NCBI RefSeq assembly: GCF_030013205.1
Contig: NZ_CP122648.1
Length of the DNA stretch: 64,000 nucleotides
Direction: 5' to 3' (one strand)
From: Escherichia coli
GTDB taxonomy: Bacteria; Pseudomonadota; Gammaproteobacteria; Enterobacterales; Enterobacteriaceae
The notes beneath the pieces were generated by a model. The model ran no database searches, had not been told where the DNA came from, and saw only the letters and a program-made list of their open reading frames with translations. Made by a program: the position numbers and the translations under genes. Within the stretch, counting starts at the first letter, position 1; each line of letters begins with the position of its first letter. Shown piece by piece: positions 19,471 to 32,853 of this stretch.

Positions 19471-19500
19471 GATTTTTGGTCGCACGAGAGTATTCAAAAC
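19471..19500. repeat. distal att repeat (degenerate copy of the tRNA-Pro 3' end)
   Basis: gatttttggtcgcacgagagtattcaaaac compared with gatttggtcggcacgagaggatttgaacc at 32850-32878. The core ttggtcg(g)cacgagag lacks one g here. Confidence 0.75.
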
Positions 19501-19551
19501 ACGCCAATAACCTCTTGATTTAATTGAAGTCGAAAATTTTAAGTCAAAAAT

Positions 19552-19577
19552 CGTATAGCTTAACGTGTAGCTAAAAA
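19552..19577 (+). promoter_or_regulatory. arm-type repeat cgtatagcttaacgtgtagctaaaaa (copy of 32710-32735)
   Basis: 25/26 identity, in direct orientation, with the sequence just upstream of int. Contains the TAGCTA motif that recurs five times at 32661-32731. Confidence 0.6.
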
Positions 19578-20309
19578 TGTTTGCTGCAAAAGTATACAAT
19601 TTTAACCGTTATGACTCCCTGTTATCCGTTATCAAGCTGGTGGATGATCATGGATAACCCGTTATGGGAATCCCCATATCGGCATCAGGCCCACCAGCGC
19701 GACGCATTTTTTTAATTTCGCGGGTGTAAAAATTTGACGGGGCGGGCGGTCCCATAAGCAATGGGGGGTAGGGATTTCGATCCCCCCTCCTGAATGCAAT
19801 TTTTCGTATGTGGCTGTGCGTCCACCAGCTACGCCGGAATGGGGTATTCCGTTTCAACGGAACAGGTATGACGAACATGATCGCACCTTCTCCCGAAAAC
19901 GGTGCGACCTCCATAGAGGAAATGCCTATTCAGATCCCCGGTGATTTTCACCATTCAGAATCTGGAGGGTGAGTTTTCCAGTTTTCCCCAATGGGGGATT
20001 CTGGAACAATCAACGGGTTAGCGATTAAGCTGGCGAGTAATTAAACTGCGAAAATTTCGTAGTTTGTGAATATATTCCGGCTTGCTGGTTAACAGTCCTC
20101 AGATGTGAGGGATGTAGCCAGCGCAATTTTGCGTCGTCGGATATATCAACAACTTAGCACAAAAATAAGTCAGGCAGATACAAACCTCAAATTTGAGGTT
20201 TGCTTGTTTATCAACGGGTAAGGATAATCATCTCCCCTTTAAAGCCCCTTCGAAGGGTTACCCGTAGGCTTAATGTAAGGCTTGGCTGTAGCCTTACCGA
20301 ACGCTCCGC

Positions 20310-20489
20310 TCACCGTCGCGGCCTGTCCGGTTTCTTCCACTGATACGGCCTCACATCATCCTGCTGGTGGCGTTCCTGTTGCAGCACAACGGAAACAGGC
20401 GCTGAACACCTGTTAATTTTGCTTGCAGGTTGTTTGATTCCGGCAATGCTGCGGATCATCTCCAGCATATCGGCTTCGGTGATGGTCAT
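20310..20489 (-). CDS. hypothetical small protein (59 aa; below the ORF-track cutoff)
   Basis: Manual translation gives MTITEADMLEMIRSIAGIKQPASKINRCSAPVSVVLQQERHQQDDVRPYQWKKPDRPRR. An aaggtg SD-like sequence lies 7 nt upstream. Same strand as the operon. Confidence 0.35.
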   Translation of the reverse strand: MTITEADMLEMIRSIAGIKQPASKINRCSAPVSVVLQQERHQQDDVRPYQWKKPDRPRR

Positions 20490-20496
20490 GATTTAC

Positions 20497-20775
20497 ACCT
20501 TAGGAAATCTTAGGGGCTGGTTGACACTTTCCGGCTTAAGACCTTAACAAATCTTAACATCGCAGGTTGACACACTTGACACTTTTTCGCGAAAAACCTT
20601 ATCAAACCTTAGCATTTCTAAGCATGGCAACTTGACACTTTTCGCGATTTTTTCGGCTTTTTGACGTGGTAAATCTGGCGAAAGGCCAGTAATGGCGGGG
20701 CTTACAGCGAGGTTGACACTTTTTCGCGTTCAGAGTGTAAAGTGTCAACCTGGCAAGCTGCTCAACTTGACACTT
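20497..20775. repeat. composite repeat array: about 7 TTGACAC(TTTTTCGCG) boxes interleaved with ACCTTAnnAAAyCTTA boxes
   Basis: TTGACAC at 20521, 20567, 20576, 20632, 20713 and 20766, inverted at 20741-20748, degenerate at 20661. ACCTTA..CTTA units at about 20497, 20541 and 20596. Immediately 3' of the HTH terminase-like gene. Confidence 0.8.
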
Positions 20776-20782
20776 TTTGAGG

Positions 20783-21310
20783 TCATTGATGGCCTGATTT
20801 TTCCCACTCAGCCAGGGCGTTTAGTCCGGCTTCACTCCAGTTATCCAGCTCATCGGGACAATCACCTGCAACATAGCAGAGCTCACAACGCAGCATACGA
20901 ATTGCCAGCCTGGCATTTTCCCGAAAATCATACTGCTCAAAGTAATATTGCCCAGCATAATCCTCAAGGCAGATAGCACCATCATCAAGAAATTGCACTT
21001 CACAGCATAGTTCCCCGGCTGCATCCTGTACACGCTGCTGTATGTCATTGTCCGTTACTGGTGCAGGGATTTTACCGTCTCTGGCCTTAACTGCTTTCCA
21101 GAACTCGCCCCACGTCATTTCCAGCGTTCTCTCTGGCCACATTTCAGAAACTGTGTCTTTTCCCTGTGCTGGTGGGCTGTTCCGCTGCTCTGTCGCTTCC
21201 ACATCGATTTTTTTACCGGACATGACCACTTCGCCTTTCTCGATCCAGTCGTAAACTGTCTGGCGGCTTACGCCTTTGTGTTTGGCATATTCTGCCTTGC
21301 TCATAAACAT
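20783..21310 (-). CDS. Nu1-like winged-HTH protein (small terminase-like or Rpp-like packaging specificity factor)
   Basis: 175 aa. The N-terminus SKAEYAKHKGVSRQTVYDWIEKG resembles the N-terminal HTH of lambda Nu1 / TerS proteins. GAGGGGAAG SD upstream. Confidence 0.6.
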   Translation of the reverse strand: MFMSKAEYAKHKGVSRQTVYDWIEKGEVVMSGKKIDVEATEQRNSPPAQGKDTVSEMWPERTLEMTWGEFWKAVKARDGKIPAPVTDNDIQQRVQDAAGELCCEVQFLDDGAICLEDYAGQYYFEQYDFRENARLAIRMLRCELCYVAGDCPDELDNWSEAGLNALAEWEKSGHQ

Positions 21311-21361
21311 GACACTTCCCCTCAGACTGTATTAATGCGCCGGAAAGCGCGTGTATTTAAA

Positions 21362-30974: not shown

Positions 30975-31002
30975 GTACCCACCGTTTTAAAACGGTACCC
31001 AC
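30975..31002. promoter_or_regulatory. paired GTACCCAC boxes flanking the palindrome CCGTTTTAAAACGG upstream of alpA
   Basis: GTACCCAC at 30975-30982 and 30995-31002, a 20 bp period. About 70-100 bp upstream of the alpA start. Confidence 0.5.
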
Positions 31003-31038
31003 TGTTTTTTATCTCATTGATTACGCTTTTCTTTTTGC

Positions 31039-31069
31039 AAAAAAATAGCGACCGCAAAGGGCCGCTATT
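31039..31069 (-). terminator. Rho-independent terminator after int-orf76
   Basis: Minus strand reads atagcggccctttgcggtcgctat followed by T7. Begins 5 nt after the orf76 stop. Confidence 0.75.
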
Positions 31070-31073
31070 GTGA

Positions 31074-31304
31074 TTACCGCTTCCACTTCTTAGGTCGTCC
31101 ACCGCATTTAAGGCTGGTGGGTCTCAGCACCTTGTCGATGCTTTCAGCCAGATTTTTCGATGCGCCACGCGAGCGCAAAAAACTGACTACCTCGTGTTTT
31201 GTGGGGGCTGTTGATTTGTCTTCCGGATCGTACGTTGACCAGAATTCACGATTTGCCATTAAGGCCAGTTGCAGGCCTTCGCCGTAGGCGGTGGTATTTT
31301 GCAT
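31074..31304 (-). CDS. hypothetical protein with basic C-terminus (GRPKKWKR)
   Basis: 76 aa ORF between int and the terminator. Poor SD. Confidence 0.4.
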   Translation of the reverse strand: MQNTTAYGEGLQLALMANREFWSTYDPEDKSTAPTKHEVVSFLRSRGASKNLAESIDKVLRPTSLKCGGRPKKWKR

Positions 31305-31402
31305 AATAGAATTTTCATATACTCCGGCCTTGTCGTTAAATTTGTGGCAATTATACGATGGTTTGGCATGGTTTTCACTGGTTGCACTGGCTTTTTGTAC
31401 AG

Positions 31403-32644
31403 TTACACGGCACGGATACCCCTTTTACCACTGGCTATGGTCACTCCGGTAGCTGCGGCCTCTACAAATTCCCCCCACCAGCGCATAAGCACCACGCGCT
31501 TTTCCAGGTAGTTACTTCGGTTATATGCTCGCCTTACCTCGTTCGTGTCCACGTGTGCGAGTGCGGCCTCGATTACGTCCGGCTCGAATCCTTCCTCGTT
31601 CGCTGCTGTACTGAATATGGCGCGTAATCCGTGAGACACCAGCACACCAGCGTATCCCATCCGGCGCAATGCAGCGTTAGCGGTCTGGCTGCTCATTGGC
31701 AGCATTGGATTTTTAAGGCTGGGAAAAACATGTTCCCTGTGTGCGCTGATTGGCTTCATTGTTTCCAGTACAGCCATCGCCTGACCGCAAAGAGGGATCA
31801 CATGGTCACGGCGCATCTTCATGCGTCCGGCTGGAATCGTCCAGGTTTCGGCATCGAGATCTATTTCTTCCCAGCGTGCGGCGGCTGCTTCGGCTGGGCG
31901 TGCTACGGTCAGCAGTTGCCACTCAATCAGCAATCTGGTTTGCCGTTCTATGCTGGCGACCGATAAATCGTGCATTAGCTGCGGTAGCTGTTCCGGTCGG
32001 ATGGTTGGCATGTGCTTTTTGGTGGGTGAGGGGAATGCCTTGCGGACGTTCGCGGCGGTGTTGATGTCAATCAGCCCACTGTTGGCAGCAAAATCCATCA
32101 CTTCATTGATGCGTTGTAAAACGCGTTTCAGGGTTTCCAGGTTGCCGCGTGCTTTAATGGGTGTGAGTATCTCAACAAAGCGGCGAGCTGTGAGGGTATC
32201 TATTGGCGTGTTTCCGATGTACGGGAATACGTATTTTTCCAGGGATCGCCAGATATCCTTAATCGTGTTGTAAGCCAGATTCTGGCCTTTTTTCATCTCG
32301 TACCAGTCCGAGGCAACTTTTTCGAACGTGTTGCCCTTTTTCCGACTCTCTGCTTCACGTTTCCGGCGTTCGTGGTCCTGTGGGTCAACTCCCTTCGCTA
32401 TGAGTGACCTGTATTCATTCCGTCGTTCTCTGGCATCGGACAGGGAAACATCATTCAGCGATCCGAGGCTGATGATAGTCCGTTTTTTATCTGCCGGGCG
32501 ATAGTACGTAAAACGCCAGATTTTTGATCCGGAGGGTTTCACCAGAAGAAATAATCCTCCACCATCCTGCAGGGTGTATTCCTTTTCCCCTGGTCGTGCG
32601 TTTTTGATCTCCGTAATGGTTAGTGGGGTGGTTTTTCGTGCCAT
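31403..32644 (-). CDS. int: P4-type tyrosine integrase
   Basis: 413 aa with an N-terminal arm-binding (DUF4102-like) segment LTITEIKNARPGEKEYTLQDGGGLFLLVKPSGSKIWRFTY and a C-terminal catalytic HGLRAIFST...RRAYNRSNY. Adjacent to the tRNA. Confidence 0.92.
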   Translation of the reverse strand: MARKTTPLTITEIKNARPGEKEYTLQDGGGLFLLVKPSGSKIWRFTYYRPADKKRTIISLGSLNDVSLSDARERRNEYRSLIAKGVDPQDHERRKREAESRKKGNTFEKVASDWYEMKKGQNLAYNTIKDIWRSLEKYVFPYIGNTPIDTLTARRFVEILTPIKARGNLETLKRVLQRINEVMDFAANSGLIDINTAANVRKAFPSPTKKHMPTIRPEQLPQLMHDLSVASIERQTRLLIEWQLLTVARPAEAAAARWEEIDLDAETWTIPAGRMKMRRDHVIPLCGQAMAVLETMKPISAHREHVFPSLKNPMLPMSSQTANAALRRMGYAGVLVSHGLRAIFSTAANEEGFEPDVIEAALAHVDTNEVRRAYNRSNYLEKRVVLMRWWGEFVEAAATGVTIASGKRGIRAV

Positions 32645-32660
32645 GTTTTTTTACTCATCG

Positions 32661-32736
32661 GTAGCTATATGCCTGGTCGTAGCTATACGGCTTTAGCTAC
32701 ACGCTGGACCGTATAGCTAAACGTGTAGCTAAAAAA
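32661..32736. promoter_or_regulatory. cluster of five (G)TAGCTA arm-type repeats upstream of int
   Basis: gtagctata at 32661 and 32679, tagctac at 32694, tagcta at 32714 and gtagcta at 32725. The last 26 nt are duplicated at 19552-19577. Confidence 0.6.
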
Positions 32737-32853
32737 TCCGGTTATAACCCTATCTTACCTATTCAATCCGGTGACTGAAAACAACAAAAAAGCCCGCTAA
32801 TCAGCAAATTAACGGGCTTTCAATAGGTTACCAATGCTATCCGATATTCGATT

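Follow-up and report, generated by a model that had tools for sequence, protein, structure and literature searches.

Phage satellites are known to alter the capsid size or the packaging specificity of their helpers, capsid-forming phage-inducible chromosomal islands (cf-PICIs) build heads of their own, and tails are taken as they come. In the Staphylococcus aureus pathogenicity islands (SaPIs), the protein CpmB imitates the part of the helper scaffold that binds the capsid, its C-terminus. To our knowledge, no satellite re-equips helper virions with ejection proteins of its own. Gram-negative phage-inducible chromosomal islands (PICIs) have been described as a succession of four zones (integration, Bro/Icd, replication, and late), the last of which captures helper late genes (Tommasini, Mageeney, Williams; bioRxiv 10.1101/2022.07.18.500453); tape-measure genes are not mentioned there. 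Here we analyze a window of 64,000 nucleotides from the chromosome of the porcine Escherichia coli strain ETEC4079 and describe within it a 13,377-bp element at the tRNA gene proL. The element is an intact Gram-negative PICI-type satellite rather than a P4-like satellite, a cf-PICI, a helper-embedded satellite (HES), or a deleted prophage. Its late operon encodes a full-length tape-measure protein (TMP) together with a head protease and a scaffold domain on separate genes. The new aspects are this late zone and the tail-gene slot of the wider family to which the island belongs.

A PICI-type satellite at proL

The element, whose 13,377 bp count the insert and one repeat, lies between the yejO terminator and tRNA-Pro(GGG), the product of proL (32854-32930, minus strand) and the only tRNA that ARAGORN calls in the window. 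In K-12 MG1655 the proL 3' end directly abuts the yejO terminator hairpin, and the K-12 site is therefore empty. Three-way alignment with this empty attB places the attR core at 32852-32868 (TTTGGTCGGCACGAGAG), spanning the last 15 nt of the proL tRNA, and the attL core, a degenerate copy of the proL 3' end, at 19475-19490 (TTTGGTC-GCACGAGAG). The two cores match at 16 of 17 positions, one G being absent from attL, and weaker similarity runs as far as 19500. The original prediction, made from the sequence alone, had proposed an island of about 13.4 kb at proL between yejO and yejM with a degenerate tRNA copy at 19471-19500, and had suggested a search for empty proL sites; the tRNA call, the alignment, and the K-12 site bear all of this out.

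In addition to its size and att repeats, the element has the traits of a PICI: an integrase at its end, alpA downstream of int, co-oriented genes, a replication gene of its own with a downstream origin, and neither a lysis module nor a complete set of structural genes. Seventeen of its 18 annotated genes are on the minus strand, the sole exception being a YlcI/YnfO-family gene, so that the predicted strand bias stands while the plus-strand genes number one and not two. Neither Pfam nor PHROGs finds a capsid, portal, large terminase (TerL), tube, sheath, baseplate, or holin among the island proteins, in agreement with the earlier view that the element is not an autonomous prophage. The same prediction had likened the int-alpA-rep/ori-late order to both PICIs and P4-like satellites. 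The first half of this comparison holds; P4-like membership does not, given the absence of P4 genes and of P4-type CI/C4/IsrK immunity RNAs, for which an Rfam search of the island (E <= 0.1) returned only the tRNA.

The island is part of a modular pool. At proL, strain E2 has an island whose integrase, orf76, and AlpA proteins are identical to those of ETEC4079 and which also encodes a RepA; its late zone is of the lambda type (capsid, decoration protein, helix-turn-helix [HTH] protein, and the small terminase TerS). SA53-3 holds a further variant. The sharing of int, orf76, and alpA with E2 therefore places the ETEC4079 island in the Gram-negative PICI pool.

The late operon

The late operon runs from 25619 down to 20310 on the minus strand and comprises seven genes, in the order 57-aa gene, scaffold C-domain, protease, TMP partner, TMP, HTH protein, and 59-aa gene. 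The phages with homologs of this zone belong to a Rac-type myovirus prophage lineage that includes Rac-SA53 (KU052037), "pPE4," and relatives. Their genes follow the order terS, terL, portal, MuF-like, protease-scaffold, major capsid protein (MCP), connectors, sheath, tube, partner, TMP, baseplate, and fibers.

The island carries the protease and scaffold parts of the single phage protein on two genes. The 227-aa DUF2213 protein (24080-24763) consists of a prohead protease domain of the assemblin fold followed by a 40-residue C-terminal helix; it is 54% identical to residues 1-226 of the 430-aa Rac-SA53 protease-scaffold and keeps the fold and the conserved His/Ser/His. The scaffold C-domain protein of 192/195 aa (24828-25406/25415) corresponds to positions 409-544 of phrog_6216, and its residues 61-189 are 64% identical to C-terminal residues 295-423 of the same phage protein. 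Its annotation as a "NUDIX hydrolase" can be set aside, as Pfam finds no NUDIX domain in it and the name is inherited from longer NUDIX-DUF2213 phage fusions. The short protease form (221-229 aa) also occurs in Citrobacter, Salmonella, Enterobacter, Klebsiella, and Pantoea.

Downstream of the protease lies a 205-aa protein (p205; 23466-24083) that is 82% identical to Rac-SA53 rac52 and, to judge by its sequence and position, is presumably a tail assembly chaperone or partner of the TMP; the spacing between the two genes is 63-64 nt in both the island and Rac-SA53. The TMP itself (679 aa; 21362-23401; phrog_7694, 1.9e-290) is full length and ends in a muralytic-type domain, the C-terminus matching TMP and injection-transglycosylase PHROGs. 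Its residues 1-501 are 89% identical to pPE4 gp56, and identity to the TMP of the cq9 prophage is 89% in the N-terminal part and 83% in the C-terminal part. Satellite and helper TMPs thus diverge at about 11% of positions and over their final ~36 aa. These PHROG matches and identities replace an initial reading of the 679-aa protein as lytic transglycosylase/VirB-like.

Protease, scaffold piece, partner, and TMP are all intact and under purifying selection, with dN/dS values of 0.19, 0.17, 0.10, and 0.15, respectively, in a single pairwise comparison with the STEC346 copy. This one comparison therefore argues against decay of the late genes. The original prediction had recognized a morphogenesis/packaging block here and called it truncated-looking. 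The block does exist; with these dN/dS values and a complete TMP gene it is not decaying, and the prediction overlooked the TMP with its upstream partner, the gene with the prohead-protease fold, and, close to attL, a cos site of the phiP27 type.

Relation to the Rac-type prophage

Against the complete cq9 prophage, which occupies the Rac site, blastn aligns the island in three segments only. The p205-TMP region forms one contiguous segment of 2,634 nt with 89% nucleotide identity that ends 110 nt before the TMP stop codon, and the scaffold and protease pieces are 68% and 65% identical, respectively. Because of this difference in identity (65-68% versus 89%), the sequences suggest that the protease/scaffold pair is old and satellite-resident and that the tail genes were captured more recently. 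A tblastn search with the TMP split into N- and C-terminal halves yields matches in cq9 for just five queries, all of them from the late zone: the protease, the scaffold piece, the partner, and the two TMP halves. The 121-aa protein (p121) has a weak match over 52 aa, and the same search finds no homolog in the cq9 prophage of int, alpA, RepA, DUF4222, Icd, YlcI, ProQ, PerC, or the 57-aa, HTH, and 59-aa proteins. Since the backbone and packaging-end genes have no counterpart in cq9, the island is not a deletion derivative of the Rac-type prophage. The original prediction had held that intact relatives with full modules would make this copy a deleted prophage; the complete phages share with it just the five queries and three DNA segments named above.

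Of 5,426 complete E. coli genomes, 33 contain late-zone core DNA (24080-25650), in 52 places altogether, and 81 contain "pPE4" head-tail DNA, presence being scored when at least 80% of the query was covered. At least 19 of the 33 late-zone genomes are also among the listed prophage carriers, against an expectation of about 0.5 (hypergeometric 1.5e-27, a value that ignores relatedness). Three satellite genomes, ETEC1749, STEC346, and RMDEC465, match the pPE4 query solely via their satellites. From this co-occurrence, the Rac-SA53/"pPE4" lineage is most likely the helper. The island measures 0.26-0.28 of the helper genome (47.5-52.3 kb), a ratio compatible with either small capsids or heads filled with about 3.6 copies. 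Strains cq9, U90, and ETEC1716 combine the island with a toxin-carrying Rac-type prophage and would thus offer a concrete helper-satellite pair in sequenced strains.

Upstream of its lysis genes, the cq9 prophage carries a scabin-related ADP-ribosyltransferase and a subtilase-type B subunit (L097 13496-14714), and Rac-SA53 has LT-IIa at the position matching this toxin cargo. The record "Actinobacillus phage vB_Apl-pPE4" (PP818812.1) is 96-99.6% identical over 11 kb to E. coli Rac-type prophages (99.6% for cq9). Its host label would therefore seem doubtful, and the sequence may be that of an E. coli phage or a contaminant.

Candidate packaging signals

The sixth late gene encodes a winged-HTH protein of 175 aa (20783-21310, minus strand), whose N-terminal HTH domain belongs to the Xis/TerS/Rpp class and whose C-terminal domain is of a novel alpha/beta type. 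Directly downstream lie six TTGACACTTT(T) boxes forming a TTGACAC array (20521-20782), the candidate recognition site of the protein. All six box matches inside the island fall within this array, while only 1.35 would be expected in the whole window, and the array is kept in every family locus and is not found in phage loci. From its fold, its position, and the adjacent array, we propose that the protein is a packaging-specificity factor similar in role to Rpp or TerS. We make no claim that it belongs to the Rpp/TerS family: a sequence search against the PDB gave no Rpp or TerS match, no similarity to Rac-SA53 TerS was found, and there are no homologs among 50,697 phage records.

A second candidate signal is a cos-like site near attL (19709-19790), which shares 86.9% identity over 82 nt with the region around cos in the Stx2e phage phiP27. 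This was the sole phage record matched by blastn. The match contains an identical run of 45 consecutive nucleotides, within which lies the annotated 10-nt cos GGGGCGGGCG (19739-19748). The packaging genes of phiP27 encode an HNH protein, TerS_P27, and TerL, unlike the system of the Rac-type prophage. Island-type cos is present in 74 genomes and also occurs in a PICI at proL whose late zone is different; it is not present in STEC346 and ETEC1716, both family members that share the island's late zone. The site therefore behaves as a separate, exchangeable end module.

ETEC4079 has a Stx2e prophage of the phiP27 type elsewhere on its chromosome (NZ_CP122643.1, ~2842000-2850000), with a methyltransferase, ileZ/argO tRNAs, and stxA2e/stxB2e. 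It is a remnant in which TerS is truncated and which has no terminase, lysis, or structural genes and no cos match.

A family of satellites with a variable cargo slot

At smrA-abgR, dinD-yicC, and tRNA-Gly, this late zone is combined with different integrases and replicases. Relatives that share it have replicases of the primase, DUF927, or DUF5906 type. Overall, the 13-14 kb architecture is found at no fewer than four att sites and in up to four copies per genome. In ETEC4079 itself the late-zone core is present three times. One copy belongs to a satellite at tRNA-Gly/actS (NZ_CP122643.1, 955576-977146) with a primase-type replicase and an AntA/AntB gene, whose protease, scaffold-piece, and TMP-partner proteins are identical to those of the proL island, which suggests recombination between co-resident satellites.

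Among IMG/VR contigs, at least 80, mostly of 9-17 kb, carry a homolog of the HTH protein. None of the 80 loci contains a Rac-type TerL, portal, MCP, or sheath. The 57-aa gene (25446-25619, minus strand in the island) accompanies the HTH homolog in 69 of them, at distances that vary from 0.26 to 5.2 kb, and the two genes therefore frame a variable slot. The slot holds a 261-aa helical protein in 36 of the 80 loci, a 90-aa protein in 12, the protease/scaffold pair in 9, and tail genes in 21. The 261-aa protein (e.g., L060 8561-9345) is apparently all-helical, has no PHROG match, and could be another capsid or tail modifier. The tail genes include TMPs of three unrelated PHROG families, namely, 7694 (the ETEC4079 island), 2276, and 1506/2854, as well as baseplate hubs (phrog_196), gpV-like spikes, and a gpI-like protein, the last two labels being our reading of the sequences that PHROGs did not confirm. 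In relatives that lack the TMP (e.g., L008 22784-23437), the final ~138 nt of the TMP gene form the end of the DUF2213 gene. This join looks like the scar of an in-frame deletion in which the partner gene and the greater part of the TMP were lost.

Our literature searches found no description of satellites with DUF2213, tape-measure, hub, or baseplate genes. In a survey of Enterobacter, islands resembling these are listed as PICIs that carry ProQ/PerC and "VirB/VirD4" components (PMC13612085), and the latter may be the same TMP misread. It is conceivable, if rather doubtful, that these loci make up an undescribed PICI subfamily, defined by the 57-aa gene, a variable slot with helper DNA-delivery parts, the winged-HTH gene, and the TTGACAC array, that re-equips helper virions with its own ejection proteins. 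If so, the satellite could enter cells that exclude the helper or could disable helper tails. A lineage that keeps its own TMP, hub, or spike under selection would mean that the DNA-injection step, too, is contested between satellite and helper, and this would matter for host range, for superinfection exclusion, and for how islands spread in enterotoxigenic (ETEC) and Shiga toxin-producing (STEC) E. coli of pigs and ruminants.

Proposed mechanism and alternative explanations

We favor, with moderate confidence, a scheme in which a satellite of the PICI kind at proL exploits a Rac-type helper, its own protease-scaffold and TMP act on helper particles, and its DNA is packaged through the HTH protein and the boxes. 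As inferred from PICI biology (PMC6739421), a helper phage would turn on AlpA; Int and AlpA would excise the element, and RepA would replicate it from the iteron origin, after which the late operon would be expressed. By analogy with SaPI CpmB, the diverged, split protease-scaffold may then redirect or sabotage helper capsid assembly, and helper procapsids are the most likely target of the pair. Competition of the scaffold-C protein for the capsid-binding site would either alter capsid size or block helper maturation. In either case, the split pair would be a new candidate device for capsid redirection or interference. Redirection of capsid size is a possibility that we hold tentatively and do not rate more firmly, because Gram-negative PICIs reportedly enter full-size heads as multimers. 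The satellite TMP and its partner would be built into helper tails, and one may speculate that they serve there for escape from exclusion or for interference. Finally, the winged-HTH protein would probably bind the adjacent TTGACAC array and so mark satellite DNA for packaging, and the phiP27-type cos could provide a second or alternative route via HNH/P27-family terminases.

Several points weigh against this scheme. The likeness of the HTH protein to Rpp and TerS is confined to a generic winged-HTH fold, the C-terminal domain being different. The Rac-type prophage has neither the island cos nor the boxes, and the island cos fits another phage type, phiP27. The Icd-like gene at 29190-29627 is a pseudogene whose N-terminus is absent according to RefSeq. 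The p-value for co-occurrence is overstated because kinship is ignored, many of the strains being pig ETEC from one project, although its direction is still clear. In ETEC4079 itself the Rac site between uspF and ttcA is empty, and the strain is not among the prophage carriers listed; the region syntenic with the ETEC4090 prophage holds no helper, and the strain's other matches are further satellites.

The alternative that best survives turns these observations around. The true helper would be a phiP27-like phage (HNH-cos-TerS_P27-TerL), and the Rac-type genes would be dominant-negative antiphage cargo that spoils the head and tail assembly of Rac-type phages vying for the same host cell. Indeed, among the packaging signals only the cos has a known counterpart, that of phiP27, to which it is identical over 45 nt that include the 10-nt cos, and the Rac-type prophage offers no match to either signal of the island. 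The Rac-type cargo does occupy a variable slot, and PICIs are known to carry defense genes and tail-assembly inhibitors (PMC11364771). However, most family members that share the late zone have no such cos, only 22 genomes contain close phiP27-type terminase modules, and the phiP27-like Stx2e prophage of ETEC4079 is a remnant without terminase or cos. Strong co-residence with the Rac-type prophage would also be odd, though not impossible, for genes that cripple it, and PADLOC recognizes no defense system among ten proteins without an assigned function. We therefore regard this explanation as unlikely, while taking it more seriously than the others.

A decayed prophage remnant, immobile and flanked by att repeats by chance, is far less probable. 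The Icd-like pseudogene, the late genes as a noncontiguous subset of a phage late operon, and the apparent deletion scar in TMP-less relatives would each be expected of such a remnant. Yet the int, alpA, rep, and packaging-end genes have no homolog in the complete prophage, and the late genes are intact, with dN/dS of 0.10-0.19. Moreover, elements of the same 13-14 kb build occupy at least four att sites, with as many as four copies per genome, the short protease form persists across Citrobacter, Salmonella, Enterobacter, Klebsiella, and Pantoea, and the Rac-type TerL, portal, MCP, and sheath occur in 0 of the 80 IMG/VR relatives. The notion of an integrative element that moves by a nonphage route such as conjugative mobilization, with plasmid-type ProQ/FinO and transglycosylase-like proteins, is the most improbable of all: ProQ/FinO proteins are typical of conjugative plasmids and the similar Enterobacter islands have been labeled as "VirB/VirD4" carriers (PMC13612085), but Pfam and PHROGs find no relaxase, oriT, coupling protein, or type IV secretion system gene, the "transglycosylase" is a TMP 89% identical to a phage one, and a cos site is present.

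Backbone genes and flanking features

The genes of the original prediction (int, orf76, alpA, Icd-like, RepA, ProQ/FinO, and PerC) are all present by RefSeq, Pfam, PHROGs, and NCBIfam, and unless stated otherwise all of the following lie on the minus strand. Next to proL is the P4-type tyrosine integrase (31403-32644; Pfam Arm-DNA-bind_3, Phage_int_M, and Phage_integrase; NCBIfam PRK09692, 560 bits), followed by orf76 (31074-31304), which travels with this integrase, as the identical protein beside the identical integrase in strain E2 illustrates, and by the AlpA-family regulator/excisionase (30697-30903; Pfam Phage_AlpA, 4.5e-8). The YlcI/YnfO-family gene (29755-30060, plus strand; NCBIfam YlcI_YnfO_N, 1.3e-16) precedes a stretch at 28526-29627 with a DUF4222 gene (Pfam), the 121-aa gene, and the Icd-like pseudogene (NCBIfam phage_ICD_like). 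A GTG-started open reading frame of 500 aa at 29190-30692 is almost certainly spurious: it is unannotated and spans the Icd pseudogene, ylcI on the opposite strand, and the region upstream of alpA.

The RepA-family replicative helicase (27114-28529; Pfam AAA_25, 3.2e-44; phrog_2850, 1.6e-251) is followed, as predicted, by an iteron-type origin. Repeat families and direct reading place at least nine (A)AAGTGAGGA repeats in an AT-rich region (26700-27116) downstream of repA and before proQ. Then come the ProQ/FinO-family RNA-binding protein (26105-26647; Pfam ProQ, 6.1e-24) and the PerC-family transcriptional activator (25821-26108; Pfam PerC, 2.2e-32). Tandem terminator hairpins at 25748-25817, detected by a terminator scan and through a chance Rfam alignment, split this unit from the late operon, whose last gene, a RefSeq CDS of 59 aa (20310-20489; phrog_1561), is conserved in relatives.

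Just inside both ends lies a direct 26-nt repeat, CGTATAGCTwAACGTGTAGCTAAAAA (19552-19577 and 32710-32735, 96% identical). The right copy is part of a cluster of GTAGCTA-type repeats (32660-32735) identified from the sequence and by a direct-repeat search. The positions of the two copies suggest that they are arm-type sites of the integrase. A 52-bp block at the left end (19636-19687), GCTGGTGGATGATCAyGGATAACCCrTTATGGGAATCCCCATATCGGCATC, is kept among satellites with differing integrases and late zones. A pattern search finds its first 25 nt in loci L001, L005, L008, and L010, and alignment shows the full ~52 nt to be common to L005 and, with one mismatch, L006; blastn against phage records gives no match to it. 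The island also supplies a hairpin terminator with a 15-pair stem (32788-32821, minus strand), located by terminator scan and K-12 comparison. After integration, the chromosomal bidirectional terminator thus remains with yejO, and proL now has the island hairpin downstream.

Elsewhere in the window, yejO (16784-19375) is intact, whereas it is split by IS5 in K-12; bcr (39381-40516) is frameshifted; and an IS1 copy lies between fruA and psuK (59565-60262).

Comparison with known satellites

The island most resembles PICIs of the EcCICFT073 type (Fillol-Salom 2018; PMC6739421) in its size, the position of int beside att, alpA, the replication gene with a downstream origin, its unidirectional genes, and the pairing of a cos with a small winged-HTH protein at the far end. 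It differs from them in having a RepA-type helicase in place of the usual primase, in the lack of a detectable Rpp homolog, and in a late zone whose genes are of the myovirus-tail and Mu-like-head kinds, where those PICIs have a lambda-type capsid gene. Its cos is of the phiP27 and not the lambda type, and its likely helper is neither lambda nor phi80.

The PICI/HES scheme (bioRxiv 10.1101/2022.07.18.500453) is matched in the four ordered zones and in the 89%-identical p205-TMP segment, which looks like a late-zone capture. Unlike the elements of that scheme, the island sits in a tRNA gene between chromosomal yejO and yejM and not inside a prophage late gene; its donor is a Rac-type myovirus, not a lambda-type siphovirus; and its protease and scaffold genes are old, rearranged, and conserved rather than fresh acquisitions.

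Satellite P4 and the island have in common a P4-type integrase that targets a tRNA gene, alpA-like and Icd-like genes, a cos, and a size of ~11-13 kb. The island nevertheless has no homologs of sid, psu, delta, or the alpha-primase by Pfam and PHROGs, and no CI/C4 or IsrK RNA by Rfam. As in the SaPI CpmA/CpmB system, a separate island protein carries the C-terminal domain of the helper protease-scaffold; the two systems differ in that there is no sequence relation between them and that the island also duplicates the protease domain. Like cf-PICIs, the island has morphogenesis proteins of its own, including a head protease, but it lacks their capsid, portal, connector, TerS, and HNH genes (Pfam and PHROGs). 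Finally, cf-PICIs have been described as stealing tails, whereas the ETEC4079 island encodes a tail protein itself.

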